A stretch of DNA of 64,000 nt from Nitrospinaceae bacterium (lineage in GTDB: Bacteria > Nitrospinota > Nitrospinia > Nitrospinales > VA-1): contig JBHHVU010000011.1 in assembly GCA_046754465.1 (NCBI GenBank), positions 11,436 to 75,435 on the forward strand. Direction: 5' to 3'. Both the position numbers and the translations under genes were made by a program. Under the pieces are notes generated by a model. That model was not told where the DNA came from. It ran no database searches and worked only from the letters and a program-made list of their open reading frames with translations. Positions 39,284-57,026 of this stretch are shown piece after piece; the stretch's first letter is position 1, and each line of letters opens with the position of its first letter.

Positions 39284-39532
39284 TCTCCCTATCCTGTTAC
39301 AAGAACCTTTCCCGGGGGGAAGGAAACTTTTCCAATTTTTATTTCCTTGATTTGTTCCCGGATCGTATCACAAGTCATGATTTTTTTTTGGTTTTGGTGG
39401 CATTGCCGGGGCAATTGAAATATAATTGACGCGTTGCGAAAATGGTCCAGGGGAAAGCGGAATTTCATTTCGGAGCCAGTCCAAACCGGTTTGGCCTGGG
39501 GCCTACCCCACCATGTTGCCGGAGGTCCTTTC

Positions 39533-39901: not shown

Positions 39902-39905
39902 ATGC

Positions 39906-40682
39906 GTGAAAGAAAATCACCTTCAATTTTCCTTGGCATTCCTATTATTTTCCCTGATCCCATTTTTTCCCGGTCCTGCTTTGGCCGTAACTGTTTCCGG
40001 CCCGCATTTTTCCTATTCCGTGGAAATTCTTCCTTTTGACGCCAAGGAAAAGGGGAAATATCATTTAAATATCATTCAACCCTATTCCTTCGCCCTTGCA
40101 ACCATCCAGAGATGCATGACATCCCTGGCTTACCAGAAAAAGATGGTCGCCTGGTCCAAAAAAAAACGGGTATTCAGTAATGCCGTGATCCTGCGGATGG
40201 CTCCGTTAATCGCCAAGTCGTTCACCCGGGCCGGACCCAATCAACGCGTGGTGTTCAAAATCATCAAATCCACCGGGAGAACCCTGCTCATGGGAGATAC
40301 CTTTTTGTCTTCGGAGGGCATGCATTGGCGCATCACCAATGTCAAACACAGCCAGAGACGGGTCGATGATTTTAGTATCATGGGCGACTCGTGGAGGCTT
40401 GTTCCCCGGAAGGGACAAAAATATAAAACCAAACAGCCTTATAAACATGTGGTCCAGAACGTCACCAACTGGATCATTTTCCCCCGTATCCGTCCCGTCG
40501 CCTCCAAGGTTCTCGAACCGCCGCCCCCCGTGGCCGCCGCCAAGGAAGAAAAAAAGATTCCCGTCACCAGCGAATCCGGCATCAAAGAAAGGCTAAAAAT
40601 TCTGGAAGACCTGAAACAGGAGGGGTTGATCAACGAGGAGGAATACCAGACCAAGCGGCGGAAAATTTTGCGGGATTTATGA
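39906..40682 (+). CDS. Exported protein with C-terminal SHOCT domain
   Basis: Signal peptide; IKERLKILEDLKQEGLINEEEYQTKRRKIL. Confidence 0.7.
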   Translation: MKENHLQFSLAFLLFSLIPFFPGPALAVTVSGPHFSYSVEILPFDAKEKGKYHLNIIQPYSFALATIQRCMTSLAYQKKMVAWSKKKRVFSNAVILRMAPLIAKSFTRAGPNQRVVFKIIKSTGRTLLMGDTFLSSEGMHWRITNVKHSQRRVDDFSIMGDSWRLVPRKGQKYKTKQPYKHVVQNVTNWIIFPRIRPVASKVLEPPPPVAAAKEEKKIPVTSESGIKERLKILEDLKQEGLINEEEYQTKRRKILRDL

Positions 40683-40686
40683 AATC

Positions 40687-40711
40687 CATCCCCCCCGGAA
40701 CGGGGGGGATG
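40687..40711. terminator. Hairpin between convergent genes (putative bidirectional terminator)
   Basis: GC-rich inverted repeat CATCCCCCCC..GGGGGGGATG. Confidence 0.55.
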
Positions 40712-40725
40712 TCTGGAGGGTTTGC

Positions 40726-41988
40726 TTAAAACATGGTTCGGATGACGACCGTATATTCGTTCTTTACCGGATCATTTCCCCGAACGTCGAACCGCATGGC
40801 AAATCCCATCTTGAAATTGTCCCTCAGATAGTACCAGATGGAAGGGGAGACTTTTGTCAAATCGAGGCTGGCAACATCATCGGAATTGATTTCGTCGTAT
40901 TGAAGCACGTAATACCAATCGTCCCGTTTATAGGCGCCGGCCAGCGTATAACCATGGAATTCCGCCTTGGTGGGCCCGGGAAGGGTGGCGATCTTAAAAT
41001 TATCGTCCCGCCCGAACTGATACACCCCCATCAGCTCTAGATTTGTTTTGAATCGAATATTGGCGGCAATGGTGTGGCGGAAGAAATCATTTTGTTGTTG
41101 CAACGCGGGGGTCCCGGCGGTTCCCAACCCGCCACTCGTATCCTGCCCTTGATAATACATATAGGAAATGCTGCTTCCTACGAACGGGCTTTTCACCGTA
41201 TTCGGAACTTCCAGCCGTAGCCCGCCCCATAGATTCTTGTCATTATCCGTATCGGTGGCGTCCTTTCCGTTATCCACGCCCCCAAACCAGACAAAGGGCC
41301 CCTTATAGCCATAGTATAAAATTCCCGGCCTGGAAGAACGGACGTTGGTCGAGTTTTCACCCCCTCCACCGGAAGATTTGACATTGAGGATATCCGATTT
41401 CTGCCAGATCCGTTTTCCATCGGAATAAGAAGAAAATTCCGACGGATTGATCAACCCCACCTGAAAATTCACAAACGTGTCATAAAGGTTGGTAAAGATC
41501 ACATGCGCAAACTCGGTTTCAAACTCATCGGTTTTGAACTCCGCTTCCACGAATATGGAAACATTTTTAAATAGCGATCCCGCCAGAAACAGGGCAAAAA
41601 AGTCCGCGTTACCAACATCAAAAGTATCTTCCAAAATCGAGTTTCTGGTTCGAGCGTTCGTTTTGTATTCCAGCGGAGTCAAACCGACCCTGGCTCCAAA
41701 CCAATTCCCAACCTGGTCGATCACCAGGTTTTCCGAAATTTCCTCCTTACCGACCGTGTCCCCATCCGGTGGTTCTCCCGGCCATTGGAATCCATTCCGA
41801 AAGAATAGTTCCCCAAAATAATTCAGCCTGGGAAACGCAGTGTGACAGGTGGTGCAGTCCACTTTGTATTTTCTGGCAAACTGAGAAAGACCTTCCGCCT
41901 TCTGGACAGGCAGCCCCCAGGCAATCACAAGGAGTAAAAGAAACCCCGTGGGAAAACTCGCCAAAACACCTTTTCGCCAAATTCTCAT
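40726..41988 (-). CDS. Cyc2-like fused monoheme cytochrome c / outer-membrane porin
   Basis: Signal peptide then SQFARKYKVDCTTCHTAFPRLNYFGELFFRNGF; amphipathic beta-strands; C-terminal Phe; 420 aa from ATG 41988. Confidence 0.75.
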   Translation of the reverse strand: MRIWRKGVLASFPTGFLLLLVIAWGLPVQKAEGLSQFARKYKVDCTTCHTAFPRLNYFGELFFRNGFQWPGEPPDGDTVGKEEISENLVIDQVGNWFGARVGLTPLEYKTNARTRNSILEDTFDVGNADFFALFLAGSLFKNVSIFVEAEFKTDEFETEFAHVIFTNLYDTFVNFQVGLINPSEFSSYSDGKRIWQKSDILNVKSSGGGGENSTNVRSSRPGILYYGYKGPFVWFGGVDNGKDATDTDNDKNLWGGLRLEVPNTVKSPFVGSSISYMYYQGQDTSGGLGTAGTPALQQQNDFFRHTIAANIRFKTNLELMGVYQFGRDDNFKIATLPGPTKAEFHGYTLAGAYKRDDWYYVLQYDEINSDDVASLDLTKVSPSIWYYLRDNFKMGFAMRFDVRGNDPVKNEYTVVIRTMF

Positions 41989-42204
41989 TGTTCTCCCTCC
42001 CAAACAATTGTCCGGCATTAGAAAACTGTAAATTGTATGATCGCCTTTAGGGTTGAATATTCCCGTAAGTAACAAAATAAATTAATTAAATCAACTGGAA
42101 TCGTCCCAGCCAGGCGAAAAGATCCAATTCATATTCCGGAATATATGGATGAGAATTCATATCATGAATATAGAGGGAAACAACAACCAAACGGGAGAAT
42201 AAGA

Positions 42205-42510
42205 ATGGCCACATTTATAATCATGGGGAAATTCACCCCACAGGGAATCCGGAACGTGAAAGAAACCACCACCCGCTCTCATCGATTTCGTGAAATCGCG
42301 GAGGGTTACGGGGTTAAGGTGCATGAAATCTTCTGGCTGATGGGAGATTTTGATGTCATCAATATCGTAGAGGCGGAGGATGAAAAGTCGGTTTCGGCCC
42401 TGCTTCTCGAGCTGGGCGCGTGGGGAAACGTTTCTACCACAACCTACAGGGCATATACGAAAGAGGAAATGGATGCTATAATCGCCAAAATGGATGGTGT
42501 GAAAAAATAA
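42205..42510 (+). CDS. GYD domain protein
   Basis: MATFII..KFT.QG...R....E..G.KV..FWLMGDFD...EA.D...GNVSTTT.RA. Confidence 0.85.
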   Translation: MATFIIMGKFTPQGIRNVKETTTRSHRFREIAEGYGVKVHEIFWLMGDFDVINIVEAEDEKSVSALLLELGAWGNVSTTTYRAYTKEEMDAIIAKMDGVKK

Positions 42511-42552
42511 ATCGATGGTGCGGCTGAACCATCCTATCCGAGTCGCTGACCA

Positions 42553-43746
42553 GTGAATACCCACAAATACCTCCTTCGATTATTTTTGATCATCCTTTCT
42601 GGGGGCGTTTTATTTCTTTCCCACCATGCGGCCTCGGGGGAAGAAAATCCGCCAACGAAAAAAATTCCCGATGTTCAATTGAATCCTCTGGGGATGTCCC
42701 CCAGCGCGGAATGCGGGAAATGTCATAAGGATATTTATAAAAGTTGGGAAAACTCACTCCACGCCCGCGCGACGAATAATCCGGTATTCTGGGCCGCCTT
42801 CCTGCAGGCCCACTTCAAAAATGTGGAAGTGGCCAATAATTCCTGTCTCCGCTGCCACGCTCCGGCCGCAAAATTTCTTTACGATTTCAAATTGGAAAAA
42901 CCCCTCACCCGGGAAGGCATCAATTGCGATTTTTGCCATTCCATTTCCAGCCTGGAACCGGCGGGTTCGCCCTCGCCGTACCGGCATGAATTCGACCTGG
43001 TCAAACAGGGCCCCCTGAAAAACGTCGAATCCCCCGTACACCGCACCCGGTACAACCCCTTGTTCAAACAATCCCGCTTTTGCGCCGGATGCCATGAACT
43101 CACCACCCCTGGTGGAACCCCCTTGATTGAAACCTTCTCCGAATGGCAGCAGGGTCCTTACCCGGCCAAGGGCATCCATTGCCAGAATTGTCACATGAGA
43201 AAAATACCCGGAAAAATTGTCGGAGAGGGAATCAAACAAACACCGGAGACTGAAATCAGCTCTCACGATATCGCCGGCGGCCACTCCCTTTCGATGAGGG
43301 GGGCATCATTAAAGCTGGAAATCAAGGATATCCGGATCAACAAACAGAAAATGGAGGTCGTCCTCGATTTGACCAACGTGGGCGCGGGACACAAAATTCC
43401 CACGGGACTGCCTTCCAAAAAACTGATGCTCCGCGTGGGGGTGCAAACCACCGATGGGGAAACCATCCGTGTTAAAGAAAAGATTTATCATAAGCACATT
43501 GTGGACTCCAGGGGCAACCTCATCGACAACGATGCCGACCTCATGCTGGGAAGGGATTTAAAAATGATTTTCGACAATCGGATCGGGCCCATGGAAAGAC
43601 GGCGAGAACATTTCACGTTTTTCGTTCCCCATCCCCAGGACAAACGTGTGTTCGCCAGGGTTTTCTACATCCACAACCCGCAAATCATTCAGCCCATGCC
43701 CATCCAGATCAAGATGCAGGAAGTCACGGCATCGCCAGGACAGTGA
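42553..43746 (+). CDS. Exported pentaheme c-type cytochrome (c554-like N-terminus, beta-sandwich C-terminus)
   Basis: CGKCH, CLRCH, CDFCH, CAGCH, CQNCH; W..S.HA; NVGAGHKIPTG. Confidence 0.85.
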   Translation: MNTHKYLLRLFLIILSGGVLFLSHHAASGEENPPTKKIPDVQLNPLGMSPSAECGKCHKDIYKSWENSLHARATNNPVFWAAFLQAHFKNVEVANNSCLRCHAPAAKFLYDFKLEKPLTREGINCDFCHSISSLEPAGSPSPYRHEFDLVKQGPLKNVESPVHRTRYNPLFKQSRFCAGCHELTTPGGTPLIETFSEWQQGPYPAKGIHCQNCHMRKIPGKIVGEGIKQTPETEISSHDIAGGHSLSMRGASLKLEIKDIRINKQKMEVVLDLTNVGAGHKIPTGLPSKKLMLRVGVQTTDGETIRVKEKIYHKHIVDSRGNLIDNDADLMLGRDLKMIFDNRIGPMERRREHFTFFVPHPQDKRVFARVFYIHNPQIIQPMPIQIKMQEVTASPGQ

Positions 43747-43747
43747 T

Positions 43748-44194
43748 ATGACGGACTCCACCCCCACAAGCCCCGCCACGGTTTCGGCCAATCGCAGAAC
43801 CTTTATCAAATGGTCGATATACGGACTGTTAGCGGCATTTTTTGCGGGAGCCGTCAATGTGGTGGTCCGTTACCTCATACCCCCCCCCCCGAAGAAGAAA
43901 ACCGGGAAGCTTTCCATCCCCGTCTCACAAATCCCGCTGGGAGGAGCCCAGTTCGTGGACTACCGGGGTTCCCCGGCGGTCATCATCCACACGGAGAAGG
44001 GATACGTCGCCTTTTCCGCGGTTTGCACCCATCTGGGCTGCATCGTCAAATGGATGCGCAATGAAAAAATATTTTACTGCCCCTGCCACGGAGGAAAATT
44101 TGACAACACAGGAAAAGTCCTGGCCGGGCCGCCACCGGAACCTCTACACAAGATCAACATTGAAGTTCGCGACGATTCGATCAACTTTGTTTGA
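43748..44194 (+). CDS. Rieske [2Fe-2S] subunit of a Rieske/cytochrome b complex
   Basis: Tat-like RRTFIK plus TM; CTHLGC and CPCHGG boxes. Confidence 0.93.
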   Translation: MTDSTPTSPATVSANRRTFIKWSIYGLLAAFFAGAVNVVVRYLIPPPPKKKTGKLSIPVSQIPLGGAQFVDYRGSPAVIIHTEKGYVAFSAVCTHLGCIVKWMRNEKIFYCPCHGGKFDNTGKVLAGPPPEPLHKINIEVRDDSINFV

Positions 44195-44200
44195 GGGACC

Positions 44201-44896
44201 ATGAAAAAACTTTTCAAAAAATGGATCGCGGCGGTTTGGGACTGGGTGGATTATCGAACCGGCATCAAGGATTTGATCCGCGAGCAACTGACGGAATACC
44301 GGGTTCCCCCCCGGTTGAACAAATGGTATTCCCTGGGAGGCCTGGCCCTTTTTGTCTTTGGAATACAATTGGTCACGGGGGTATTGCTGCTCGTCTATTA
44401 TGTGCCGTCCACCGAAGAGGCGTTTGACAGTGTCCAGCGCATCATGCTTGAAATTCCCTATGGCTGGCTCATGCGCACCTCCCATGCCGCTGGAGCCCAT
44501 TTGATGGTCATGGTGGTCTTCCTGCACATGGTGAGCGTCATATTCATTGGGTCCTATAAAAAGCCGAGGGAGCTCACCTGGCTGACTGGCTGCGGCCTGG
44601 TTTTCATGACGCTGGGAATCTGCTTCACCGGTTACCTGCTGCCCTGGAGCCAGCTCTCCTACTGGGCAACGACGGTGGCGACCAATATTCCCGCGCCCAT
44701 TCCCGTTATCGGACCCATGATTGTCCGGTTGATTCGCGGCGGGGATCAGATCAATCCCGACACCCTGAACCGTTTTTTTGCCCTGCACGTCGTCGTCATT
44801 CCCGCGGTCATGTTGGCCCTGGTGGGAATTCATCTGTACCTGATCCGCGTGCTGGGAATTTCGGACCCGCATCAGGCGGATGAGGAAACTGAGTAA
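44201..44896 (+). CDS. petB: Cytochrome b6-type N-terminal subunit
   Basis: Four heme His ligands, GSYKKPRELTW, FTGYLLPWSQ.SYWA, RFFALH. Confidence 0.93.
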   Translation: MKKLFKKWIAAVWDWVDYRTGIKDLIREQLTEYRVPPRLNKWYSLGGLALFVFGIQLVTGVLLLVYYVPSTEEAFDSVQRIMLEIPYGWLMRTSHAAGAHLMVMVVFLHMVSVIFIGSYKKPRELTWLTGCGLVFMTLGICFTGYLLPWSQLSYWATTVATNIPAPIPVIGPMIVRLIRGGDQINPDTLNRFFALHVVVIPAVMLALVGIHLYLIRVLGISDPHQADEETE

Positions 44897-44898
44897 TC

Positions 44899-45306
44899 AT
44901 GTACAAAAAACCAAAATACTTGAAGGGAACCCGGTTTTTCCCAAGCTTTATCATGGAAGACGTTCTGGTCATCTTCATCTTCCTGGCGATTTTCTTCACA
45001 GGGGTCTTCTTCTTTCCGGAATGGATCATTTCCGGGGAGTCGGAAATGCCGGCGGACCCCTTCAATACGCCGGAGCACATCAAACCCGAATGGTATTTTC
45101 TGGCGTCCTATCAGTTTTTGAAAATCATTCCATCGGAATTCGCTGCGCTTATTTTAATGACCCTGGGAATCATGGGATTTATTTTCTTACCCTTCCTGGA
45201 CCGGTCGGAGGAAAAAAGAATCCAAAAGCGGCCTCTTTTTTTATTACTGGTAATCACTTTCATCATTTTCTTCGTGGGGTTGACCCTATGGGGCGCTTTT
45301 TCCTGA
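44899..45306 (+). CDS. petD: Cytochrome b subunit IV (PEWY-containing)
   Basis: PADPFNTPEHIKPEWYF, three TMs, LPFLDRS. Confidence 0.92.
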   Translation: MYKKPKYLKGTRFFPSFIMEDVLVIFIFLAIFFTGVFFFPEWIISGESEMPADPFNTPEHIKPEWYFLASYQFLKIIPSEFAALILMTLGIMGFIFLPFLDRSEEKRIQKRPLFLLLVITFIIFFVGLTLWGAFS

Positions 45307-45314
45307 GAGGGACC

Positions 45315-46154
45315 ATCGTCGGGCAATCCACCGGCCACCGATTTTATGCCTGGCGGCGGAAAGCCTTGTGGGTTGTGGTCTTGACCTTGTTCCCGCCCGC
45401 ACCGGCGCAACCGGCGTTTCATCCGGAATCTCCCAACTCCTGTATTGAATGCCATCGCTCCCTTGAAGATAAGCGTTTGTCCGAGCCGGTGATCCAATGG
45501 TCAAAAAGTATCCATAATGAAGTCGGCAACACCTGCGACGGGTGCCATGGGGGCGATCCTCAAGACAAATCAACCGGCGCCATGTCTAAAAAAAACGGCT
45601 TTTACCCGGCACCGGAAGACGAACAAGTCGCCTCGTTTTGCGGCAAATGCCATGCGGAAATATCAAAGGATTACCTGGAAAGCACTCATGGAATGATGAG
45701 TAACCCCAACTGCGTCACTTGCCATGGGTCTCATTCCATCCGGAGAATCAGCATCAATATTATCAAGCCGGACAAATGCACCGAGTGCCATGATTATGAA
45801 AATCCGGAAAAACTGCTGAAAATCCTGCTATCCCTTCACAAGGAGTTTCACGAGGCGGAAGCTCAGTTAAAATTGATCCGTGGGGTTCCCATCCACCCCC
45901 TGAAAAAAGAACTGGAAAAAACCTGGAAAGACCTCCGCCAGGTCCGGATGGTCAGCCACACGTTCGACCTACCCACCATCGAAGTGGAAGCGAAAAAGGT
46001 TCACATGTCCATGCTGGAAACCAGGAACGAGATTGACCGGTTAACACAATTGACGCAGGCCAGAAAACGATGGGGATTCCTGGTGGTTTTCTTATTCATG
46101 GGGTTGGCCCTCTTGACCTACTGGTACAACAAAAAGCCGGATCCAGGGGAATGA
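45315..46154 (+). CDS. Pentaheme c-type cytochrome with C-terminal membrane anchor
   Basis: CIECH, CDGCH, CGKCH, CVTCH, CTECH; C-terminal TM; start uncertain (ATC 45315 or TTG 45366). Confidence 0.85.
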   Translation: MVGQSTGHRFYAWRRKALWVVVLTLFPPAPAQPAFHPESPNSCIECHRSLEDKRLSEPVIQWSKSIHNEVGNTCDGCHGGDPQDKSTGAMSKKNGFYPAPEDEQVASFCGKCHAEISKDYLESTHGMMSNPNCVTCHGSHSIRRISINIIKPDKCTECHDYENPEKLLKILLSLHKEFHEAEAQLKLIRGVPIHPLKKELEKTWKDLRQVRMVSHTFDLPTIEVEAKKVHMSMLETRNEIDRLTQLTQARKRWGFLVVFLFMGLALLTYWYNKKPDPGE

Positions 46155-46249
46155 TATTCCCGAAACACATTGAAATATAGAAATATATCTTAACAAAAGC
46201 GTGAAAAATCATATATTTGAATCAGACTACCCCTTGTTATCGAAGAGAA

Positions 46250-46540
46250 ATGATAAAACGAATACGCAGATGTAAACTCGCTGTGATTTTGGTATTTGCG
46301 TTGGGATTTTTCTCCTTATCCGTCTGTCATGCGGGAGCGCAAACGCAATCCATGGATCCCCAGGGTTGCACCATGCTGAATCTTTGTGGCGCCTGTCCAA
46401 TCGCCGATGTGAGCGATTCCCCGGAATTGAAGTATTTCTCCCATCCGTCGCCTACGTTTGCGGATACCCCCCTCCCGTGGCCCGGTCTTGTCAAGGACCG
46501 GCTGTACCATCCTCCTCGAAAACACGTATTTTCGTCCTAG
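46250..46540 (+). CDS. Small exported Cys-motif protein / putative CutF-CruR-like regulatory leader
   Basis: Signal peptide, CTMLNLCGAC, Pro-rich linker, C-terminal LYHPPR; first gene before the cus-like operon. Confidence 0.65.
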   Translation: MIKRIRRCKLAVILVFALGFFSLSVCHAGAQTQSMDPQGCTMLNLCGACPIADVSDSPELKYFSHPSPTFADTPLPWPGLVKDRLYHPPRKHVFSS

Positions 46541-46665
46541 ATAAGCCAAATCATCAGACTAGCCTATTTAGGCTAATTTAACAAAAACGCCATGAGTCCG
46601 GCGAAAGGTTTAAAGCTTCTGCCGCGGTCCGTGGACTCATCACCGCTTTTTGCGGGGAGAATCTC

Positions 46666-47940
46666 ATGCATAAAATCATATCCCTTATAATAATTGCAGT
46701 ATTTCTCGGTGGGGCCTCTCCCGTCCAGGAAACGGGGGACAGTCCGTTCCGGAAGAAGATGAACGAATTCATTTCCATAGCCCTGGAAAATAATCCCCAA
46801 CTCAAGGAGTCTCAAAACCGGATCAAGCAATTTAAGGAAGTTCCCTCCCAGGCCGGTTCCCTGGACGATCCCATTTTGCGGTTTGAATTGAAAAACCTCC
46901 CGTCCGACTCCTTTGCATTCGACCAGGACCCCGGCACGCAAAAAAAAATATCCGTGTCACAAAAATTCCCTTATCCCGGAAAACTGATGTTGCGCTCCGA
47001 AATAGCGGGAAAAAATGTGGCCATCGCCGAGCACAGTTTGGAGGACTTGAAACTGAAAATCATTAAGGATGTCAAAACATCCTATTTTGAACTGAGTTTC
47101 ATTCTGGCCTCCATTCAAATCACCCGGAAAAATAAGGACCTGCTGGAACAGTTTGTCACCATCGCCGAGACCAAATACTCCGTGGGCAAGGGCATTCAAC
47201 AGGATGTATTGAAAGCCCAGGTGGAGCTGTCCAAAATAATCGATGAATTGATTCGGCTCAACGAACTCAAGGAATTGGAACAGGCCCGACTGAACACCCT
47301 CATGGATCGGTTACCCCAGGAACCTCTGAGCATTCCGGACGGAATCACCCATACCCCCTTCACCTACAATCTGGTGGAATTACAAAAACTATCGGAAGAA
47401 TTCCGTCCTACCCTGAAGGAAATTCGTTCCCTGAAAGAGCGGTTTCAAGTATCCAAGCGGCTGGCGGAAAAGGAATACTATCCCGATTTCAACGTAGGTT
47501 TCAAATACGGGCAGCGTGAGAACGGACTTGTCCAGGACCGGCCCGACTTCGTTTCCGCCTACGTGGCCATCAACATCCCCATCTGGTACAAAACCAAGCA
47601 AAGACGCAAGGTGGCCGAAGAGTCTTTCAAAATCATGAAGATTCAGGAAGCTTACAATGATGCCCGAAATCAAATTTTCCTGGGTATCAAGGAATTATTC
47701 GAGGAGGAAATCCGGGAGGAACAAACAATCGAACTCATAGGAAAAGCCATTATTCCACAAGCACGGCAATCCCTGGAATCTGCCGTGGCGGGTTATGGCG
47801 TGGACAAGGTGGATTTCCTGACCCTGCTGGACAATCAGATAACCCTGTTCAATTGGGAAATCAAGTACCAACGGGAGCTGGCATCTTATGAAAAAACACT
47901 GGCGAATCTGGAAAGCGTCGTCGGCAAAAGCTTGTTTTAA
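46666..47940 (+). CDS. TolC-family outer membrane factor of a heavy-metal RND system (CusC-like)
   Basis: ALENNPQL, SQKFPYPGKL, KYSVGKG.QQDVLKAQVE, YYPDF, G.VDFLTLLD. Confidence 0.9.
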   Translation: MHKIISLIIIAVFLGGASPVQETGDSPFRKKMNEFISIALENNPQLKESQNRIKQFKEVPSQAGSLDDPILRFELKNLPSDSFAFDQDPGTQKKISVSQKFPYPGKLMLRSEIAGKNVAIAEHSLEDLKLKIIKDVKTSYFELSFILASIQITRKNKDLLEQFVTIAETKYSVGKGIQQDVLKAQVELSKIIDELIRLNELKELEQARLNTLMDRLPQEPLSIPDGITHTPFTYNLVELQKLSEEFRPTLKEIRSLKERFQVSKRLAEKEYYPDFNVGFKYGQRENGLVQDRPDFVSAYVAINIPIWYKTKQRRKVAEESFKIMKIQEAYNDARNQIFLGIKELFEEEIREEQTIELIGKAIIPQARQSLESAVAGYGVDKVDFLTLLDNQITLFNWEIKYQRELASYEKTLANLESVVGKSLF

Positions 47941-48017
47941 GTTTTTACAGGCACTCAAACACCCAACCTTTTTTCGGGGGGAAGCGTTCCCGAAAGCCCG
48001 AAAAGCATAGGTGCACC

Positions 48018-49988
48018 ATGACCGATATCGACGATTTACTTAAGGAAAAAATAACCGAAAACTCCTCTTCCCGGGAAGAAGAGCAAGCAGAGGTGTTATA
48101 TCCTTCCGAACCAGAACTGGAATCCAGCAATTTCGAGGAAGAGGTCCATCAATCCCGGTTCCGGCTTTTTTTGACAAGAACCGGAAATTCCATGGCCAGG
48201 CTCTGGAAGGGAATAAAGTCCCGCTTCAAGAATGAGATTCCGGAGGAGGATTATCTCTCTGATTCCTCCGACGCCGATATTCTTTTCCCCAAGGAAGAAG
48301 ATGAGAAGGAGGCTGCCTCCAAAAAGAAGAAAAGGGGTCACGGTTTTTTAAAAATAATTGGCTGGCCCGTTTTGCTCATTATAGTGTTCCTGCTGGGATT
48401 TTTCACCCGCCCGGACATGATGGATAACACCCTGAAAAACGTGGAAAAGTGGAGCGCATTGGTTTTCAAGGAAATGGGTCCCATCCAGGAAAAAGTCTCC
48501 GAAAAGGTCACGGAAATCATCGATAAGAACGTGCCCGTTAAAGGGCAGGCCCCCGCGGGTTCCGGAGACGGGGAAAAACCCCAAAGAAAAATCAAATATT
48601 GGAAAGCGCCCATGACGCCGGGATTCATCTCTGACAAACCCGGCAAATCCCCCATGGGCATGGACCTGGTTCCTGTCTACGAAGAAGAGGAAGCGGTCAA
48701 ACCAAAGCGGAAAATCAAATATTGGAAAGCGCCCATGACGCCGGGATTCATCTCTGACAAACCCGGAAAGTCCCCCATGGGCATGGACCTGATTCCCGTC
48801 TATGAAGATGAAGCCAACACCGGTCCGGGGATCCGGATCAATCCCAACATGGTCCAGAACATCGGAATAAAAACGGCAAAAGTAAAAAGGACCATCCTCA
48901 CACGGGAGGTGCGGACGGTGGGGCATCTCACTTATGATGAAAGGTTGGTCACCCACATCCACACCAAGTATGAGGGATGGGCGGAAAAATTGTATGTCGA
49001 CTTCAGGGGACAGGAGGTAAAAAAGGACGACCTTCTGCTTGAAATTTACAGTCCGGAACTGGTCTCCACCCAGGAAGAACTGCTTCTGGCCCTGAAATAC
49101 AATCAATCCCTCAAAAACAGCTCGTTCAAGGAGATTTCCGGGGGGGCCAAAAGGTTGCTGGAGTCCACCCGGCGTAGACTGGAGTTGTTTGATGTCCCGG
49201 AACATCAAATCGAAGCCTTGATCCGGGACAAAAAGATCACCAAAACCATGCACATCCATTCGCCATTCCGGGGTTTCGTGACCGAGAAACACGTTTTGCA
49301 GGGGATGTATGTCAAACCGGGCATGAACCTTTATACCATTGCCGACCTGTCCAACATCTGGGTTTTGGCCGACGTTTATGAATATGAATTGCCCTGGGTC
49401 AAACTCGGCCAGCCCGCCCAGATGACCCTGTCCTACTTCCCCGGAAAAAAGTTCAAGGGAAAGGTGACCTATGTCGACCCCTTCCTGGACCCCAAGACCC
49501 GGACCGTCAAGGTGAGAATGGAATTCGACAACCCCGAATGGAAACTCAAACCAGACATGTATGCCAACGTCAATCTGGAATCCATCATAGCCAAGCGGGC
49601 GGTCGCGGTTCCGGAAGATGCAATCATTCGCGCGGGAGAGAAAGACCTGGTCATCATAAGAAATTCGTCGGGTGGATTTGAACCTCGTCGAATTATTCTG
49701 GGAGCGCAGGCCAAGGGATATTACCAAGTCCTCAAGGGCCTCCGCGGCGGCGAGGAAGTGGTCACCTCCTCAAACTTCCTGATCGATTCCGAAAGCAATC
49801 TCGGGGTGGCACTCAGTAAAATGCAGTCAACCAAACCCCCATTGGGGAAAAACCCCCCGAAGAAAACCCCGTCACTTAAAAAGAAGATGACCATGAAAAA
49901 AGAGGAAGGGGGAAAAATGGATCTGTCCAAAATGAAGGGAAAACAAAATCAACCCACCGGCATGGTAAAAATAAAGCCGGAACCATGA
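48018..49988 (+). CDS. cusB: CusB-type periplasmic adaptor with two Met-rich metal-binding domains
   Basis: YSPELVSTQEE, IADLSNIWV, DPKTRTVKVR, LKPDMY, FLIDSES. Confidence 0.9.
   Translation: MTDIDDLLKEKITENSSSREEEQAEVLYPSEPELESSNFEEEVHQSRFRLFLTRTGNSMARLWKGIKSRFKNEIPEEDYLSDSSDADILFPKEEDEKEAASKKKKRGHGFLKIIGWPVLLIIVFLLGFFTRPDMMDNTLKNVEKWSALVFKEMGPIQEKVSEKVTEIIDKNVPVKGQAPAGSGDGEKPQRKIKYWKAPMTPGFISDKPGKSPMGMDLVPVYEEEEAVKPKRKIKYWKAPMTPGFISDKPGKSPMGMDLIPVYEDEANTGPGIRINPNMVQNIGIKTAKVKRTILTREVRTVGHLTYDERLVTHIHTKYEGWAEKLYVDFRGQEVKKDDLLLEIYSPELVSTQEELLLALKYNQSLKNSSFKEISGGAKRLLESTRRRLELFDVPEHQIEALIRDKKITKTMHIHSPFRGFVTEKHVLQGMYVKPGMNLYTIADLSNIWVLADVYEYELPWVKLGQPAQMTLSYFPGKKFKGKVTYVDPFLDPKTRTVKVRMEFDNPEWKLKPDMYANVNLESIIAKRAVAVPEDAIIRAGEKDLVIIRNSSGGFEPRRIILGAQAKGYYQVLKGLRGGEEVVTSSNFLIDSESNLGVALSKMQSTKPPLGKNPPKKTPSLKKKMTMKKEEGGKMDLSKMKGKQNQPTGMVKIKPEP
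48588..48808 (+). repeat. Tandem near-identical ~98-bp repeats (period 123 bp) encoding KIKYWKAPMTPGFISDKPGKSPMGMDL(V/I)PVYE
   Basis: Copies at ~48588-48685 and ~48711-48808 differ at only a few positions. Confidence 0.95.
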
Positions 49989-50012
49989 ACCGTCCTCACC
50001 GGGGTTGATCAA

Positions 50013-50981
50013 GTGAACTCTTTTATTTTCCAAAGGCCGCATATTTTATGGAAGATTTTTGGGATAGCGGGCCTCACCCTTTTCGTCCTGATCCTTTCTT
50101 TTTTTAAGGGTGGCTTCCTGGAAAAATTCCACACCGATGCCATGATCGCTTCCTTTTTCCTGGTGGTGGTTTTGTGCGGCCTCCTTTTTTGGGATTTTTT
50201 GAAAATCATGCAGGTTCAACAGGAAAAAATTAATGCGCTGATGGGGATAAGGTTATCCCTGACTTCCCTCATCGACCTCAAGGATTCCTATACGGAAGGT
50301 CATTCCAAGCATGTCAGGAATTTGGCCAGGAAATTCGCAGAATTTTTAAAACTGTCTCCCACCGAAATTGAGGACATAAGTACGGCCGCGGAGTTGCACG
50401 ATATCGGTAAAATTGGCGTCCCGGACTCTATTTTGAAAAAAAATGGAACATTGAATGAAGAGGAATTTTTGGAAATTAAAAAACATCCTCAACGTGGGTC
50501 GGATGCCCTTAAACCCTTAAAAGGATTCGAAAACGTAACTCAAATCATCCGGAACCATCATGAGAGATACGACGGCACGGGCTATCCGAGGGGCCTTTCG
50601 GGAGAGCGGATTCCCTTTGGGGCCCGGGTGCTGGGCATATTGGACACCTATGACGCCATGGTCTACAACCGACCCTACCGGAAAGCGAAGACCATTAGGG
50701 AGTTTCTCGACACCCTGGAAAAAGGCATGGGCTCCCAATTTGACCCGAGCCTGGCGGCCGCTTTCCATCAGTTTTTGCTGCAAAATTCGGAGAAGAATCA
50801 TAAGGCCTATGACCCTGTTTGCGGGATGGAAGTCCACCCCAAAACCACCGCTTTCAAATCTCTTTATCAAAACCAAACTTATATATTTTGTTCTGAAATT
50901 TGCTTGGAGGAATTCAACCGGAATCCCGGCAAATACGTTTTCAAAACCATGCCGACCGATACGCCCCCGCGCTCCCGGTAA
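50013..50981 (+). CDS. Membrane HD-GYP phosphodiesterase with C-terminal YHS/TRASH metal-binding domain
   Basis: Two TMs; TEGHS, LHDIGK, HHERYDGTGYP, DTYDAM..RPYR; DPVCGMEV...YIFCSEICLEEF..NP.KY. Confidence 0.9.
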   Translation: MNSFIFQRPHILWKIFGIAGLTLFVLILSFFKGGFLEKFHTDAMIASFFLVVVLCGLLFWDFLKIMQVQQEKINALMGIRLSLTSLIDLKDSYTEGHSKHVRNLARKFAEFLKLSPTEIEDISTAAELHDIGKIGVPDSILKKNGTLNEEEFLEIKKHPQRGSDALKPLKGFENVTQIIRNHHERYDGTGYPRGLSGERIPFGARVLGILDTYDAMVYNRPYRKAKTIREFLDTLEKGMGSQFDPSLAAAFHQFLLQNSEKNHKAYDPVCGMEVHPKTTAFKSLYQNQTYIFCSEICLEEFNRNPGKYVFKTMPTDTPPRSR

Positions 50982-50986
50982 ACCGC

Positions 50987-53900
50987 ATGCTTAATAAAGT
51001 TATCGCCGCCTCATTGCAGAATAGATTCATGGTTATCCTGGGCACCCTGTTTGTCGTTGTCTTTGGACTCTATTCCATGCAACGAACCCCCCTGGATGCG
51101 ATTCCGGATTTAAGCGATGTGCAGGTCATCATCTTCACCGAATACCCCGGACAGGCCCCGCAAATCGTGGAGGACCAGATCACTTACCCACTAACCACCA
51201 CCATGCTGGCCGTCCCCTTTGCCACAACCGTCCGTGGATATTCTTTTTTTGGATTTTCTTTCGTCTACATCATATTCGAGGACGGGACGGATTTGTACTG
51301 GGCCCGCAGCCGGGTCTTGGAACAATTGAATTTTGTCGCCGGCCGGTTGCCGCCGGGGGTCAATCCTTCCTTGGGACCGGACGCCACGGGAGTCGGCTGG
51401 GTGTATGAATATGCCCTGGTGGATCGAACCGGGAAAAACGACCTGTCGCAATTGCGATCCATCCAGGACTGGTACCTGCGTTATGAACTTCAGACCGTTC
51501 CCGGCCTCTCCGAAGTGGCCAGTATCGGCGGTTACGTCAAACAATACCAGATCGAGGTGGACCCCAACAAACTGCTCGCCTACAACATCCCACTGCATAA
51601 AATCATCCGGGCCATCAAGCGCAGCAACAATGACGTCGGCGGACGACTGCTGGAAATGTCGGAAACCGAATTCATGGTCCGTGGCCTGGGTTACATCAAA
51701 AACCTGAAGGACATCAATGAAATTCCCGTGGGGGTGGATAGCGAAGGAACCCCCATACAGGTTCGGGATGTGGCCAACGTACAACTCGGTCCGGAATTGC
51801 GGCGCGGACTGGTGGAGCTCAACGGCGAAGGGGAAGTGGCCGGCGGGATCGTCATAATGCGTTTTGGGGAAAACGCGCTGAAGGTCATCAATGGGGTCAA
51901 GAAAAAACTCGAAACCTTAAAAGCCGGCCTTCCCGAAGGTGTCGAAATCATCCCCGTTTATGACCGATCCTCCCTAATATACCGGGCGATCGACACCCTC
52001 AAGGAAAAATTAATCGAAGAGATTGTTGCGGTAGCCGTGATTTGCATGGTCTTCCTGGTCCATTTACGCTCGGCCCTCGTGGCGGTCATTACTCTGCCGG
52101 TGGGCATTTTGATGGCCTTTATCGTCATGCAGAAACAAGGGCTCTCGGCCAATATCATGTCCCTGGGAGGAATCGCGATCGCGATTGGCGCCATGATAGC
52201 GGGGGCCATCGTCATGATCGAAAACGCGCACAAACACCTGGAACACGACCGCGGCAAGAAAGACCATTGGCAAATCATCTACGAAGCCTCCATCGAAGTG
52301 GGACCCGCCCTATTTTTCAGCCTGTTGATCATCACGGTATCCTTCCTTCCGGTCTTCACCCTTCAGGCCCAGGAAGGCCGGCTGTTTTCCCCCCTTGCGT
52401 TCACCAAGACCTATTCCATGGCGGCTTCCGCCATTCTCGCCATCACCCTCGTCCCAGTTTTGATGGGATATTTCGTCCGTGGACGCATTCTTCCCGAAAA
52501 GAAGAATCCACTCAACTGGCTATTGGTCACCATTTACCGCCCCATCATCTGGCTGGTTTTAAGAATGAAACTGGTCGTTATCATGGTAGCGGTCCTGGTG
52601 GTCCTGGTAACAATCATTCCCCTGAAGCGGCTGGGTTCGGAATTCATGCCGCCGTTGAACGAAGGAGATATCCTCTATATGCCCACGACACTGCCGGGGA
52701 TCTCCATTACAAAAGCCAAGGAATTGTTGCAGCAAACCGATAAAATCATCCGGCAGTTCCCGGAAGTTCACCACGTCTTCGGTAAAATCGGGCGGGCGGA
52801 AACGGCCACCGACCCCGCCCCCTTGAGCATGGTGGAAACCACCATCATGCTCAAACCGGAAGATCAGTGGAGAGAGGGAATGACAACCAAAAAACTCATC
52901 GATGAGTTGAACGCGGCCATTGATATCCCCGGCGTGACCAATGCCTGGACCATGCCCATCAAAACCCGCATCGATATGTTATCCACCGGAATCAAGACCC
53001 CGGTGGGAATCAAGATTGCCGGTGACGATCTGAACGTCCTTCAAAAACTGGGCGAACAAATTGAGTCGGTGGTCCGGAACATTCCGGGAACGCTCAGTGT
53101 TTTTTCCGAAAGGGTGGTGGGAGGAAATTATTTTGATTTTGAAATCAGCCGGGAAGAGGCCGCCCGATACGGGCTCACCATGGGGGATGTCCAGGACATT
53201 ATCCAAACCGCCATCGGAGGAATGAATATCACCACTACCATCGAGGGATTGGAACGTTACCCCGTCAATTTGCGGTACAGCCGGGACCTTCGTAACGATT
53301 TCAACAAGCTGCAACGGGTCCTGATTCCCACGCCGAGAGGGGAACATATTCCCATGGCCCAGGTGGCGAAAATCAAAATCAGGAAGGGGCCTCCCTCGAT
53401 CAAGAGTGAAAACGCCCGGCTCAACGCCTGGATCTATATCGATCTGAAAAACATCGACGTGGGAACCTACGTGGCGAATGCCCAGAAAGTCCTGGCAAGG
53501 GAAATCACCATCCCTCCCGGATACAGCCTCTTTTGGAGCGGCCAGTACGAATACATGGCACGCGCCAAGGAACGGTTAAAAATCGTCCTGCCCTTCACCC
53601 TGATCATCATATTCCTGCTCCTGTACTTCAACTTCAAAAACGTGACCGAGAGTTTGATTGTCATGTTATCCCTGCCTCTGGCTCTGGTGGGGGGTATCTG
53701 GTATATTTACTATTTGCAATATCAATTGAGCGTTGCGGTGGTTGTCGGTTTCATTGCCTTGGCCGGGGTCTCCACGGAAATCGGGGTCCTGGTTTTAGTT
53801 TATATCGATCATGAGATCCAAAGAAAAAAGAACGTCATGGAAATTCGAACCCTAAAGGATTTGCGGCAAATCATCATCCATGGAACTTCCGAACGGGTGC

Positions 53901-54115
53901 GGGCGGTCATGATGACCGCCGCCGCCACCATTGGGGGACTGCTTCCCATCATGTGGGGTCACGGTACCGGTTCCGAGGTCATGAAACGCATCGCCGCTCC
54001 CATGGTGGGAGGGATGGTTTCCGCCACCATCCTGACCCTGATCGTTCTCCCCGCCCTTTACGCTTTTGTCCTGGAACACCGGCTGAAACAATCCGGCAAT
54101 TATTCCCCTCATTAA
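50987..54115 (+). CDS. cusA: CusA/CzcA heavy-metal RND permease (Cu/Ag type, atypical TM4/TM11)
   Basis: PLDAIPDLSDVQVI, LGPDATGVGWVY, YDRS, EGDILYMP, DMLSTGIK, IAAPMVGG; start at ATG 50987. Confidence 0.95.
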   Translation: MLNKVIAASLQNRFMVILGTLFVVVFGLYSMQRTPLDAIPDLSDVQVIIFTEYPGQAPQIVEDQITYPLTTTMLAVPFATTVRGYSFFGFSFVYIIFEDGTDLYWARSRVLEQLNFVAGRLPPGVNPSLGPDATGVGWVYEYALVDRTGKNDLSQLRSIQDWYLRYELQTVPGLSEVASIGGYVKQYQIEVDPNKLLAYNIPLHKIIRAIKRSNNDVGGRLLEMSETEFMVRGLGYIKNLKDINEIPVGVDSEGTPIQVRDVANVQLGPELRRGLVELNGEGEVAGGIVIMRFGENALKVINGVKKKLETLKAGLPEGVEIIPVYDRSSLIYRAIDTLKEKLIEEIVAVAVICMVFLVHLRSALVAVITLPVGILMAFIVMQKQGLSANIMSLGGIAIAIGAMIAGAIVMIENAHKHLEHDRGKKDHWQIIYEASIEVGPALFFSLLIITVSFLPVFTLQAQEGRLFSPLAFTKTYSMAASAILAITLVPVLMGYFVRGRILPEKKNPLNWLLVTIYRPIIWLVLRMKLVVIMVAVLVVLVTIIPLKRLGSEFMPPLNEGDILYMPTTLPGISITKAKELLQQTDKIIRQFPEVHHVFGKIGRAETATDPAPLSMVETTIMLKPEDQWREGMTTKKLIDELNAAIDIPGVTNAWTMPIKTRIDMLSTGIKTPVGIKIAGDDLNVLQKLGEQIESVVRNIPGTLSVFSERVVGGNYFDFEISREEAARYGLTMGDVQDIIQTAIGGMNITTTIEGLERYPVNLRYSRDLRNDFNKLQRVLIPTPRGEHIPMAQVAKIKIRKGPPSIKSENARLNAWIYIDLKNIDVGTYVANAQKVLAREITIPPGYSLFWSGQYEYMARAKERLKIVLPFTLIIIFLLLYFNFKNVTESLIVMLSLPLALVGGIWYIYYLQYQLSVAVVVGFIALAGVSTEIGVLVLVYIDHEIQRKKNVMEIRTLKDLRQIIIHGTSERVRAVMMTAAATIGGLLPIMWGHGTGSEVMKRIAAPMVGGMVSATILTLIVLPALYAFVLEHRLKQSGNYSPH

Positions 54116-54186: not shown

Positions 54187-55149
54187 TTGGAGATGGATTT
54201 GAAAAAGCCCAAATCAGAAAACCTCACCGCCACCATTGGCGGAATCACGTTGCATTTGAGCCGTTCGGACCACACTCAACCGGAATGGATCGGACAGGAC
54301 GAAGTGCTTAAACAAACGCTCGCCTGCTGGCTGGTGGTGGGTGAGAAAGACCTGCCGCTGTCCCCGCGGATCGTGGGGATGCCCGGAATCGGAAAAACCA
54401 CGCTCGCCATGGCCGCGGCCATGAGGCGAAAACAACCCCTTTATATTTTTCAGTGCACCAGCGATACCCGTCCCGAGGACTTGCTAGTGACCCCGGTGCT
54501 TGCCGAATCTGGAAAAATCTCCTATCACGCCTCACCCCTGGTCAGCGCCATGATCACGGGAGGAATCTGCGTCCTCGACGAAGGCAACCGGATGAATGAA
54601 AAAAGCTGGGCCTCGCTGGCCCCCTTGCTCGACCACCGGCGGTATGTGGAATCCATCATCGCCGGAATTCAAATCCACGCCCACAAGGAATTCCGGGCCT
54701 GCGTCACCATGAACCGGGATGAATCAGTGTTCGAGGTTCCGGACTACATCCTTTCCCGCCTACAACCGACCCTGCAGTTGAACATGCCAAGCCATCAGGA
54801 TGAACTGGGCATCTTGAAATACCATCTGCCTTTTGTGGAGTCGGACCTCCTGAACATGACCGTCGGATTCCTGCAAAAATCACATCAACTGGATCTGGAT
54901 TTTTCGCCCCGGGACGGTATCCACATTCTTCAATACGCCCTCAAACGGCTCAGCCAGGAAAAGGATCATCCCCTTTCCAAGGATGAGGCCTGGCGGGAAG
55001 CGGTGTGCAAGGTTTTGGGAGAAGACGCCCTGGACCTGGATGGATTGGCCGCCAGAAAACAAAGGGCCCTGGGAACGGAGGGGCTGCCGATGGGTTTGGG
55101 GGATTTCTTTTTCAACGAGGACAGTCCCCTGCATCCCGACAGCGACTAG
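54187..55149 (+). CDS. MoxR/CbbQ-like AAA+ ATPase
   Basis: Walker [21 protein letters not shown], Walker B VLDEGNR, TMN sensor. Confidence 0.85.
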
Positions 55150-55190
55150 CCGCCCGCTTTATAGCCGGCGGGGAATCCAAAACCACTGTC

Positions 55191-57026
55191 ATGGAATCCA
55201 AATCAATCTTCACGATCAGCCCGAATATCCAGGTTTTGCCGGTGGTTCACGGAAGCGGCAGCTACACCCGGGAGGTGAGGCAACGGATATTGTCCTCCCA
55301 CTGCGGCTGCCTGGCCGTGGCCCTGCCGCCGGAGTTTCAACCCACCGTGGAACGGGGCGTGGACCTTCTTCCGGCGATCACCCTGAGTTGCCTGGAAGAA
55401 CCGGACGGGGTACAAAGTTACGTGCCCGTCGATCCCTGCCAGCCGGTCATCATGGGTCTGCGCATCGCCCGGCAAGAAGGGATTCCGGTGGCGTTCATCG
55501 ACTGGAGCACTCCCCGGTTCGAACCCCGGCGGGTGGAATTTCCGGATCCCTTCGCCCTGCGCAAACTCTCCCTGGAAAAATTCAACGCGGCCCTCCTACT
55601 CAGCCTGAAACGTCCAGCGCCGGGGAGCCAGCACGAACAAAGAGCGCGCTGGATGGCCTACCAGCTTCACCGCCTGGAACTGGACCATTCCCGGATCGTT
55701 TTCATCTGTTCCATCCTCGACTGGCCCTGGATCAAGGAAGCGTACGACGAGCGCCTGGATTACACCCAACCGCAACACCCCGATAATTTTCCACATCTCT
55801 ACGCGGTGGAAAAAAGCACCCTTTATTTTGCCCTGTCCGAATATCCTTACATCACTCACCTCTACGAAAAACATCGCCAGGAGATGCGCTCGGACAAGGA
55901 TGTCGCCATCGACGGAGTCAAGGAAATTCTACTCCGCGCCCGAGAACTGTTTCTCAAGAAAAAAAAAGCGTTGTATCACAATTTGACCACCCAGGCCTTT
56001 CAAATCTACCTCCAATACGTCCGCAACCTGACCCTCCTGGAAAGGCGGTTGACACCGGACCTGTATACCCTGGTCACCGCCGCGAAACAAATTGGCGGCG
56101 ACCGCTTCGCGATCGCCGTTCTCGAAGCGGCGCGGGAATATCCCTGCGAGGAAAACCAGTCCCTCGAATCCCTGGCGCTGGGAATCGACCAGGCGGTCTT
56201 CGACACCGAAGAAAACAAACCCGTCAGAATGAAAAACCGGCTGTCGGAAATTTCCCTGGAATGGAGAACCCTCAACCTCAAACCCGAACCGGCCCCCTTC
56301 AAACAGCAGAACTGGAAATACCGGTGGAATCCACACGGTCAATGTTCCTGGCCGCCGGAAGACGAAATTATCGAAAACCTCAACACCCATGTGCGCGAAC
56401 AGAGCCGGCTCCTGTTGAGCCACGACCTGGCCCGCACGGAAAAATTCACCTCCTCGGTCAAAGATGGCATCGACATCCGCGATACCCTGAGGAATTGGTA
56501 CACCGGGGATATCTACGTCAAGGAGATCCCGCCATCGCGGGGACAGGTGGAAATCGTCGTCTTCCTGTTCGATCCCGAACCCGATCCGCGGCGGTACCCC
56601 TGGCGTCAAACCTGGTACGCCGAACACCGCGACGAATCCACGCTATGTTTTTACGCGGCCGATTACACACAAAACATGGTCGGACCCGGGATCGCCGAAT
56701 CCCATTACGGCGGCTGCATGATGATTTATCCGCCCCGTCCCATTCCCAACATCTGGGAGGACCCGCTGATTTACCGGTCCGATACGTTGGAAGAAAAACT
56801 TCTGGAAGCGGCGTTTTTTCATTCCCGGGAAAAGCATGTCACCGTGGCCGCCCCCTGCCCGCCGCGGGCGAGTTGGAGGAGGCTGGCCCGGCAATTCAAA
56901 AAATCCCTCATCCACATCCCCATGAAACGGTTTTCCACTCAGACCCTGGAACGGGTGCGGCGCTTCCACGTTTTGAACGGCAAGGAAATCCGCTCCTTCG
57001 CCCAACGATTCATTCAGGATGTTTAG
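55191..57026 (+). CDS. Conserved hypothetical protein, probable AAA ATPase partner
   Basis: 611-aa ORF right after the ATPase; LPVVHGS, AVALP, DGIDIRDTLRNW; start at ATG 55191. Confidence 0.7.
   Translation: MESKSIFTISPNIQVLPVVHGSGSYTREVRQRILSSHCGCLAVALPPEFQPTVERGVDLLPAITLSCLEEPDGVQSYVPVDPCQPVIMGLRIARQEGIPVAFIDWSTPRFEPRRVEFPDPFALRKLSLEKFNAALLLSLKRPAPGSQHEQRARWMAYQLHRLELDHSRIVFICSILDWPWIKEAYDERLDYTQPQHPDNFPHLYAVEKSTLYFALSEYPYITHLYEKHRQEMRSDKDVAIDGVKEILLRARELFLKKKKALYHNLTTQAFQIYLQYVRNLTLLERRLTPDLYTLVTAAKQIGGDRFAIAVLEAAREYPCEENQSLESLALGIDQAVFDTEENKPVRMKNRLSEISLEWRTLNLKPEPAPFKQQNWKYRWNPHGQCSWPPEDEIIENLNTHVREQSRLLLSHDLARTEKFTSSVKDGIDIRDTLRNWYTGDIYVKEIPPSRGQVEIVVFLFDPEPDPRRYPWRQTWYAEHRDESTLCFYAADYTQNMVGPGIAESHYGGCMMIYPPRPIPNIWEDPLIYRSDTLEEKLLEAAFFHSREKHVTVAAPCPPRASWRRLARQFKKSLIHIPMKRFSTQTLERVRRFHVLNGKEIRSFAQRFIQDV

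Follow-up and report, generated by a model that had tools for sequence, protein, structure and literature searches.

Can an operon for copper efflux also carry a link between copper and cyclic-dinucleotide signaling? This question is raised by a 64-kb stretch of DNA (G000:C11:11436-75435; hereafter, the window) from an uncultured marine Nitrospinota bacterium whose genome is 97% complete. Positions 46250-54115 of the window are occupied by five consecutive + strand genes, all in the same orientation, which encode, in order, a small leader protein, an outer-membrane factor, the adaptor CusB, a protein with an HD-GYP and a YHS domain (HD-GYP-YHS), and the pump protein CusA. The nearest named relatives of the window are Nitrospina and Nitrospinaceae assemblies, and the public sequencing runs in which it is present are registered as metagenomes from hydrothermal vents. 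A first-pass annotation had proposed that the five genes form an assembly of the resistance-nodulation-division (RND) type that was repurposed for Cu(I)/Ag(I) sensing, passive flux, or copper delivery, with its output through cyclic-dinucleotide turnover. We favor another reading, to which we give a probability of roughly 55%: a Cus-type efflux operon together with an accessory phosphodiesterase that would sense copper and degrade a cyclic dinucleotide.

A five-gene operon with an inserted signaling gene

Comparison of the open reading frames (ORFs) to Pfam and NCBIfam confirmed the gene content that the first-pass annotation had described, namely a leader, a TolC-type channel, a CusB with a long N-terminal tail and two Met domains, HD-GYP-YHS, and CusA (Table 1). 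The intergenic gaps are, in gene order, 125, 77, 24, and 5 nt, the last two being those on either side of the HD-GYP gene. A terminator scan found no terminator-like site between the operon genes on the + strand (these scans are at chance level). Similarly, the promoter-like site upstream of the leader is one of nine in the region, where 7.9 are expected from shuffled sequences, so such sites occur at chance frequency. Nor does the predicted RNA fold of the leader-channel spacer (z = -1.4) point to an attenuator or a terminator.

The first-pass annotation had also noted that cusF and cusRS are not nearby, which we can confirm: among the larger ORFs scanned over the 64-kb window, there is no CusF, no two-component system, and no MerR regulator. 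CusF (PF11604) has no matches in the whole genome (97% complete); control genomes did match.

Table 1. Positions in the window of the operon genes and of the sites and domains discussed in the text.
Feature	Position	Strand	Evidence
Promoter-like site (TTAACA, 16-nt spacer, TATATT), 5' of leader	46190..46217	+	10/12 matches; consensus match only
Leader, small putatively secreted Cys/Met protein, 96 aa from ATG	46250..46540	+	C40/C46/C49, C-terminal YHPP[RK]
TolC/CusC-type outer-membrane factor, 424 aa	46666..47940	+	PF02321, 2.7e-41, one family match in two stretches
CusB-type periplasmic adaptor, 656 aa	48018..49988	+	HlyD_D23, 1.3e-83; HMBD/PF19335 in two stretches
Tandem Met-motif domains of CusB (K.YW..PM ... 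M.MDL.P), residues ~191-220 and 232-261	48588..48800	+	PF19335, two stretches
Membrane-anchored HD-GYP phosphodiesterase (predicted) with C-terminal YHS/TRASH, 322 aa	50013..50981	+	PF13487, 5.9e-44; PF04945, 5.3e-14
YHS domain, residues 267-309, predicted ligands D267, C270, C293, C297	50811..50939	+	PF04945, 5.3e-14
CusA-type RND protein, 1042 aa	50987..54115	+	TIGR00914, 1270.4 bits versus cut-off of 701.45
GCG codon (Ala) where E. coli CusA has D405 (transmembrane helix 4)	52199..52201	+	HMMER alignment
Ala-Val codons at the positions of E. coli CusA P983-K984 (transmembrane helix 11)	53903..53908	+	HMMER alignment

HD-GYP-YHS is predicted to be a copper-sensing phosphodiesterase

Both domains of HD-GYP-YHS score well above the Pfam cut-offs (150.2 bits versus 27.2 for PF13487 and 52.4 versus 30.3 for PF04945), and its GTG start is in register with the Met of its orthologs. 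In all of 40 family members, the catalytic residues of the HD-GYP domain (H97, H129, D130, H158, E184, and G188-x-G190-Y191-P192) are invariant, as are the four YHS residues D267, C270, C293, and C297. An AlphaFold2 model (with a predicted local distance difference test score, or pLDDT, of 85) has two N-terminal hydrophobic helices (residues 9-29 and 36-90). Given the distribution of charges, both the HD-GYP and the YHS domain should be cytoplasmic.

The best Foldseek matches of the model are the HD-GYP proteins PmGH (4mcw, 2.1e-11), PA4781 (4r8z), and DvhD (9rbz), while the best sequence match in the PDB is V-cGAP3 (5z7c, 2.9e-36), followed by PmGH and PA4781. These four proteins have the same fold and the same catalytic motifs as HD-GYP-YHS, but their partner domains are receiver, PAS, or tandem HD-GYP domains, and all four lack both a YHS domain and a membrane anchor of two helices. 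The Glu of the PmGH motif "DPETQNH" aligns with a Tyr in HD-GYP-YHS, which we take to mark the binuclear rather than the trinuclear type of HD-GYP.

A precedent for the YHS domain comes from Mycobacterium phlei, where an adenylyl cyclase is reported to be activated by copper through its C-terminal YHS domain, and the proposed ligands, one Asp and three Cys, are the residues that are invariant here (PMC4626032). In both cases an enzyme of messenger metabolism ends in a YHS domain. However, the output in M. phlei is a cyclase that forms cyclic AMP, whereas here we predict a membrane-anchored HD-GYP that degrades a cyclic dinucleotide and is encoded within a copper efflux operon. HD-GYP-YHS probably senses copper and degrades cyclic di-GMP (c-di-GMP).

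In the reading that we favor, the secreted Cys/Met leader, the outer-membrane channel, CusB, and CusA would form a Nitrospinota-type Cus efflux operon that exports Cu(I)/Ag(I). The accessory protein would be held in the membrane by its two helices; its cytoplasmic HD-GYP domain would hydrolyze a cyclic dinucleotide, most likely c-di-GMP, and its YHS domain would bind cytoplasmic copper via one Asp and three Cys. HD-GYP-YHS would be co-transcribed with the pump, presumably under induction by copper, and the enzyme would turn the copper load into a change in the level of the messenger, in one direction or the other, which might (for instance) shift cells between attached and motile states.

Association of the HD-GYP-YHS family with copper genes

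We searched 120 Nitrospinota genomes for HD-GYP-YHS and for CusA and compared the loci. Full-length HD-GYP-YHS is present in 12 of the 120 genomes, including the window's own. In nine of the 12, which represent four families, it is inserted between cusB and cusA, and the channel gene is located 5' (G000, G036, G033, G028, G047, G048, G017, G016, and G011). In another two genomes (G070 and G098), it lies directly 5' of a multicopper oxidase gene, with a MerR gene nearby in G070. Some of the operons that contain the HD-GYP-YHS gene ("linked" operons) have further copper genes on their flanks: a multicopper oxidase after cusA in G048 and CopA-type ATPases with YHS and HMBD domains in G033 and G016. 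Thus, members of the HD-GYP-YHS family are associated with copper genes. The insertion at the same position in nine operons, the multicopper oxidase neighbors, and the invariant residues make the link from copper to cyclic dinucleotides credible, and this part of the first-pass proposal stands.

Operons with a CusA from the same clade (68%-86% identity to that of the window) greatly outnumber the linked ones. The junction between cusB and cusA was readable in 39 Nitrospinota operons, of which nine have HD-GYP-YHS and 30 have no gene at that place. On the CusA tree, the linked rows are interspersed with unlinked sisters, and the well-supported branches force at least four gains or losses.

The HD-GYP tree tracks taxonomy, with L120 next to L121 and L117 next to L118 and L119. 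Because the HD-GYP tree follows taxonomy and the CusA tree does not, we suggest that the HD-GYP gene was inherited vertically and that the adjacent cusA was sometimes exchanged, by recombination, between operon copies. One genome, G048, has two copies of the operon: L121 (contig C26), which has HD-GYP-YHS, and L129 (contig C22), which lacks it.

These loci also bear on a different role for the protein. HD-GYP-YHS might mainly handle copper: its tethered YHS domain would pass cytoplasmic Cu(I) to the path of transmembrane methionines in CusA, and the HD-GYP domain would be regulatory or inactive. Such a role would explain why the gene lies just 5' of cusA (5 nt), why YHS domains also head the CopA-type copper ATPases of neighboring loci, and why CusA retains its transmembrane Met pairs. 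It would not explain why all of the HD-GYP catalytic residues are invariant in 40 sequences, which is unexpected for a dead domain, and hand-over to a pump is impossible where the family lies beside a periplasmic multicopper oxidase. Furthermore, 30 of 39 operons manage without the protein. Overall, we consider a role mainly in copper handling to be very improbable.

CusA lacks the aspartate of transmembrane helix 4

According to the first-pass annotation, the window's CusA is missing two of the three proton-relay residues, and an HMMER alignment bore this out. The protein aligns over its full length with the E. coli CusA chains (E = 0); E939 is kept as Glu, D405 is replaced by Ala, and K984 is replaced by Val, along with P983 by Ala. 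Conservation extends to the Met triad (M573/M623/M672) and to the Met pairs of the transmembrane region. The best match in the PDB, 4dnt, is itself a chain with Ala at position 405. In E. coli CusA, point mutations at D405 (including D405A), E939, or K984 abolish transport (PMC8092243). Hence the copy of the pump in the window probably cannot run the canonical proton relay. Judging by its sequence, this protein is a CusA homolog by descent but, with no Asp in transmembrane helix 4 (TM4), it cannot be classed as a canonical proton-driven CusA.

The Ala at position 405 is not an assembly slip, as contigs from two samples are identical there: codon 405 is covered with zero differences by contigs of run X3 (51931-52683) and of run X4 (50770-52780), which is a second sample from the same study. 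The codon, GCG, would need two nucleotide changes to become either of the Asp codons.

The loss of K984 is ordinary. Among 150 representatives of the family, which we drew from a library of 1.84 billion proteins, position 984 is Lys in 57, another residue in 80, and a gap in 13. Among members of the window's clade in which transmembrane helix 11 (TM11) is visible, Ile or Val takes the place of Lys984 in 32 of 38 (7/7 linked and 25/31 unlinked). K984 does not define the family, and we rejected its loss as a marker of the linked pumps since 25 of 31 unlinked CusA proteins lack the Lys as well. The local motif of TM11 in CusA, R-x-R-P-I-[LM]-M-T, presumably resembles the TM11 motif of AcrB.

Seven of the nine linked CusA proteins retain D405, so a repurposed pump is not something that HD-GYP-bearing operons have in general. 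Nor do the unusual features of the operon come as one package: operons that lack the HD-GYP gene can also have the leader, the N-terminal tail of CusB, two Met domains, and a CusA without K984.

The loss of D405 is rare, and the genes without it are under purifying selection

In contrast to K984, D405 is nearly universal. Asp is found in all 149 of the family representatives that have a residue at position 405, and in 52 of the 54 CusA/CzcA-type sequences from Nitrospinota that cover TM4. The two exceptions, the window (Ala) and G017 (Val), are both linked to HD-GYP. When we searched a collection of 5.8 billion proteins with the TM4 region, the only sequences without Asp in the best 120 clusters were the window, G017, and P0359 (Ca. 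Nitromaritima sp. SCGC AAA799-C22). The last of these is a full-length protein with Val405 and an intact E939. It is 86% identical to the CusA of G017, with which it has D405V, N413S, and F457L in common and forms a supported pair (99/98), and the window's CusA falls within the same 12-row clade. A tree that is constrained to a single origin of the three D405-less proteins is compatible with the data (p = 0.75 in the approximately unbiased [AU] test), and 18% of bootstraps unite them if the trait columns are left out, so a common origin is neither shown nor rejected. No HD-GYP-YHS cluster is recorded on a contig of the length given for P0359 (26,031 nt), which is a weak hint that P0359 is unlinked. 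In short, the window's D405 loss is genuine and rare, and with two or three related cases, we do not claim a tie to the HD-GYP gene.

The D405-less genes do not appear to be decaying. The window's CusA deviates at only six of the columns with at least 90% conservation among the other sequences, and the ratio of nonsynonymous to synonymous divergence (dN/dS) between the window and G017 is approximately 0.113/1.7 (~0.07), similar to pairs that have D405. By this measure, these genes are under purifying selection. The low ratio, along with the persistence of the Val variant in a pair that is 86% identical, suggests that the proteins are still functional in some way. Both E412 and E939 are kept, so an alternative proton path is possible. 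The Ala405 protein could be dead, could use another proton path, or could have a new role; its sequence is compatible with all three.

The rest of the genome matters for the first of these. A second, canonical CusCBA set lies on contig C21, and its CusA has D405, E939, and K984; there is also one CopA-type ATPase (contig C29). These probably supply ordinary copper export. The window's cusA might therefore be a recent loss-of-function allele that is redundant with the C21 set, in which case HD-GYP-YHS would act alone and the operon would be a pump on its way out in this genome. Besides D405A, whose effect in E. coli is described above, a second private change (P983A) lies at an otherwise invariant column, and the terminal branch of the window (0.15) is longer than that of L121 (0.089), which is its nearest row by path. 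On the other hand, the frame is intact across 1042 codons, the deviations at conserved columns are just the six mentioned above, and the same sequence is present in contigs from two samples. Also, the Val405 lineage, be it independent or shared, has persisted over 14% protein divergence, and G017 (97% complete) has no back-up: it has no second CusA-type match, as its other two matches are only 36%-37% identical. We therefore think that a recent loss of function is unlikely.

The absence of a back-up in G017 fits better with the first-pass idea of a repurposed assembly if that idea is restricted to the D405-less lineage. There, a CusA that does not pump would serve as an uncoupled conduit or receptor for Cu(I), and HD-GYP-YHS would read its state and put out a change in cyclic dinucleotides. 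These proteins would then be a small Nitrospinota lineage of naturally uncoupled RND proteins that were selectively retained so that their state becomes a signal. This would account for the purifying selection with very few other changes at conserved columns, for the retention of all of the copper-relay methionines, and for the fact that, near-universal as Asp405 is, both of the exceptions with known context are linked to HD-GYP. But D405 is kept in seven of the nine linked CusA proteins, and HD-GYP-YHS keeps its membrane hairpin even beside a multicopper oxidase, where there is no pump to read. P0359 is weakly indicated to be unlinked, and two or three related cases do not amount to a statistical association. 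Repurposing in this lineage seems to us rather improbable, and as a general account of the linked pumps, it does not survive the retention of D405.

Several points weigh against a pump with an accessory copper-sensing phosphodiesterase, which we nevertheless prefer. First, the substrate of HD-GYP-YHS is not settled, as the best sequence match in the PDB, V-cGAP3, is specific for 3'3'-cyclic GMP-AMP (cGAMP), and the c-di-GMP enzymes are next. Second, HD-GYP-YHS has no recognizable copper neighbor in the remaining genome, G024. Third, the protein is dispensable for the pump, given its absence from most of the assessable operons and its repeated gain or loss on the CusA tree. Fourth, as there is no copper regulator among the larger ORFs scanned in the window, induction of the operon by copper is assumed. 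Finally, the evidence that the D405-less CusA proteins still work somehow argues that they may be pumps with another proton path.

Comparison to known systems

The window's operon shares the core of E. coli CusCFBA: an outer-membrane factor, a CusB with a Met domain, and a CusA with the Met triad, the Met pairs, and E939. It differs from the E. coli system in lacking CusF (from the genome) and CusRS (from the larger ORFs scanned in the window), in having a leader before the channel gene and HD-GYP-YHS between cusB and cusA, and in the proteins themselves: in CusB, a cytoplasmic tail of about 106 aa is followed by a membrane helix, and the Met domain is present twice, while CusA has D405A, P983A, and K984V.

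The cusDCBAF operon of Cupriavidus metallidurans is similar in other ways. It has a small exported Met/Cys-rich protein, CusD, before cusC, and it has no adjacent dedicated two-component system (PMC10304878). The likeness between CusD and the Nitrospinota leader is in position and composition only, so it is an analogy rather than an established homology. CusD is described as a Tat-exported lipoprotein with other motifs (PMC10304878), and its operon has CusF and no HD-GYP gene.

In a full-text search of the openly accessible literature, no paper turned up that connects HD-GYP and YHS in the way proposed here, or that treats HD-GYP together with copper and CusA; the one match for HD-GYP and YHS is on c-di-GMP genes of Dickeya. 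Among the matches listed for HD-GYP and copper, or for Nitrospina, copper, and efflux, neither this protein nor this operon is described. If the enzyme behaves as predicted, then copper stress would be linked directly to cyclic-dinucleotide signaling by a YHS sensor. So far, such a sensor has been shown solely on an adenylyl cyclase; here, nitrite oxidizers that are abundant in the sea would have the link within an operon for metal efflux. Also, a natural CusA that lacks D405 and is under purifying selection is a test case for whether the TM4 Asp is indispensable, as opposed to another proton path or a non-pumping role.

The leader, the channel, and the adaptor

The leader has a hydrophobic, signal-like N terminus, a C..M...C..C motif, and the C-terminal end ...YHPPRK, and it has no match to any family in Pfam or NCBIfam. 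Relatives of the leader lie 5' of the channel gene in 18 loci, of which eight are HD-GYP-linked and ten are unlinked. In the alignment of these 18 sequences, C40, C46, C49, P88, and P89 are invariant. By analogy, the leader may have the role that CusD or CusF has in other systems. Orthologs of the channel that are 47%-70% identical hold the same position in related operons.

CusB scores above the cut-off of the general model for RND adaptors (TIGR01730, 129.2 bits versus 94.9) and below the cut-off of the CusB-specific model (NF007303, 230.8 versus 390). Its first hydrophobic segment is at about residue 107, so that an acidic tail of about 106 aa, which is predicted to be cytoplasmic, precedes a single membrane helix. 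The tail contains the motif "EEIIFP" (in general, [DE][DE][IV][IL]FP), in which F90 is invariant across 31 of 31 aligned CusB proteins and P91 is nearly so. The motif lies about 20-30 residues ahead of the membrane helix (residues 1-128 correspond to 48018-48400 of the window), and it is found in both linked and unlinked operons. It looks like a docking site for a cytoplasmic partner.

The doubled Met motif of CusB is found in four linked operons (the window, L119, L120, and L121) and in two unlinked ones (L128 and L129). At the other end of the protein, a C-terminal tail (residues ~595-656; 49800-49985 in the window) is rich in Lys, Met, and Pro and has no family match. This tail may be an additional metal-binding segment in the periplasm or a flexible segment.

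Neighboring genes and other members of the family

Immediately 5' of the operon, at 39434-46154, are genes for a multiheme cytochrome c, a Rieske protein, and a cytochrome b (a bc-type complex). On the 3' side, cusA is followed at 54187-57026 by a gene of the MoxR/NorQ AAA_5 type and by an ORF of 673 aa that matches no family. The same AAA_5 gene follows the operon in G033 (L118, 14784-15761), with a CopA gene in between. Elsewhere, gene pairs of the MoxR/NorQ AAA_5 type mature metal centers.

The window also contains flagellar genes at 22518-25931 (a C-terminal fragment of FlhB, a FliK-like gene, and FliL). Because of these genes, the organism is probably motile, which is relevant to an output through c-di-GMP. 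As for the signaling background, the genome has eight matches to GGDEF, three to PilZ, and six to HD-GYP.

A metagenome scan with the HD-GYP-YHS protein kept 80 loci, all of which are generic HD-GYP domains (covering ~20-295 of the query), and it found no orthologous operon. Two loci that seemed to combine HD-GYP with YHS when viewed by tblastn were discarded: by Pfam, L032 is CHASE2-GAF-HD-GYP and L070 is GAF-HD-GYP, and they have no YHS domain and no copper neighbors. Three pairs of CusA and HD-GYP-YHS clusters (P0283/P0011, P0286/P0010, and P0299/P0014) agree in the length of their longest contig (16970, 686129, and 8200 nt, respectively). These are probably additional linked operons in metagenomes, and all three of the CusA proteins have Asp at position 405.

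A 242-aa HD-GYP-YHS (P0028) that is 59% identical to the window's is labeled as being from a Nitrospirales assembly, so the family may reach beyond Nitrospinota, or the label or the bin may be wrong. Finally, in G070 (L158, contig C6, ~3077-3089), the match to CusA is in two pieces (residues 1-162 and 167-1040) that are about 12 nt apart, which may reflect a frameshift, a stop codon, or an assembly error.

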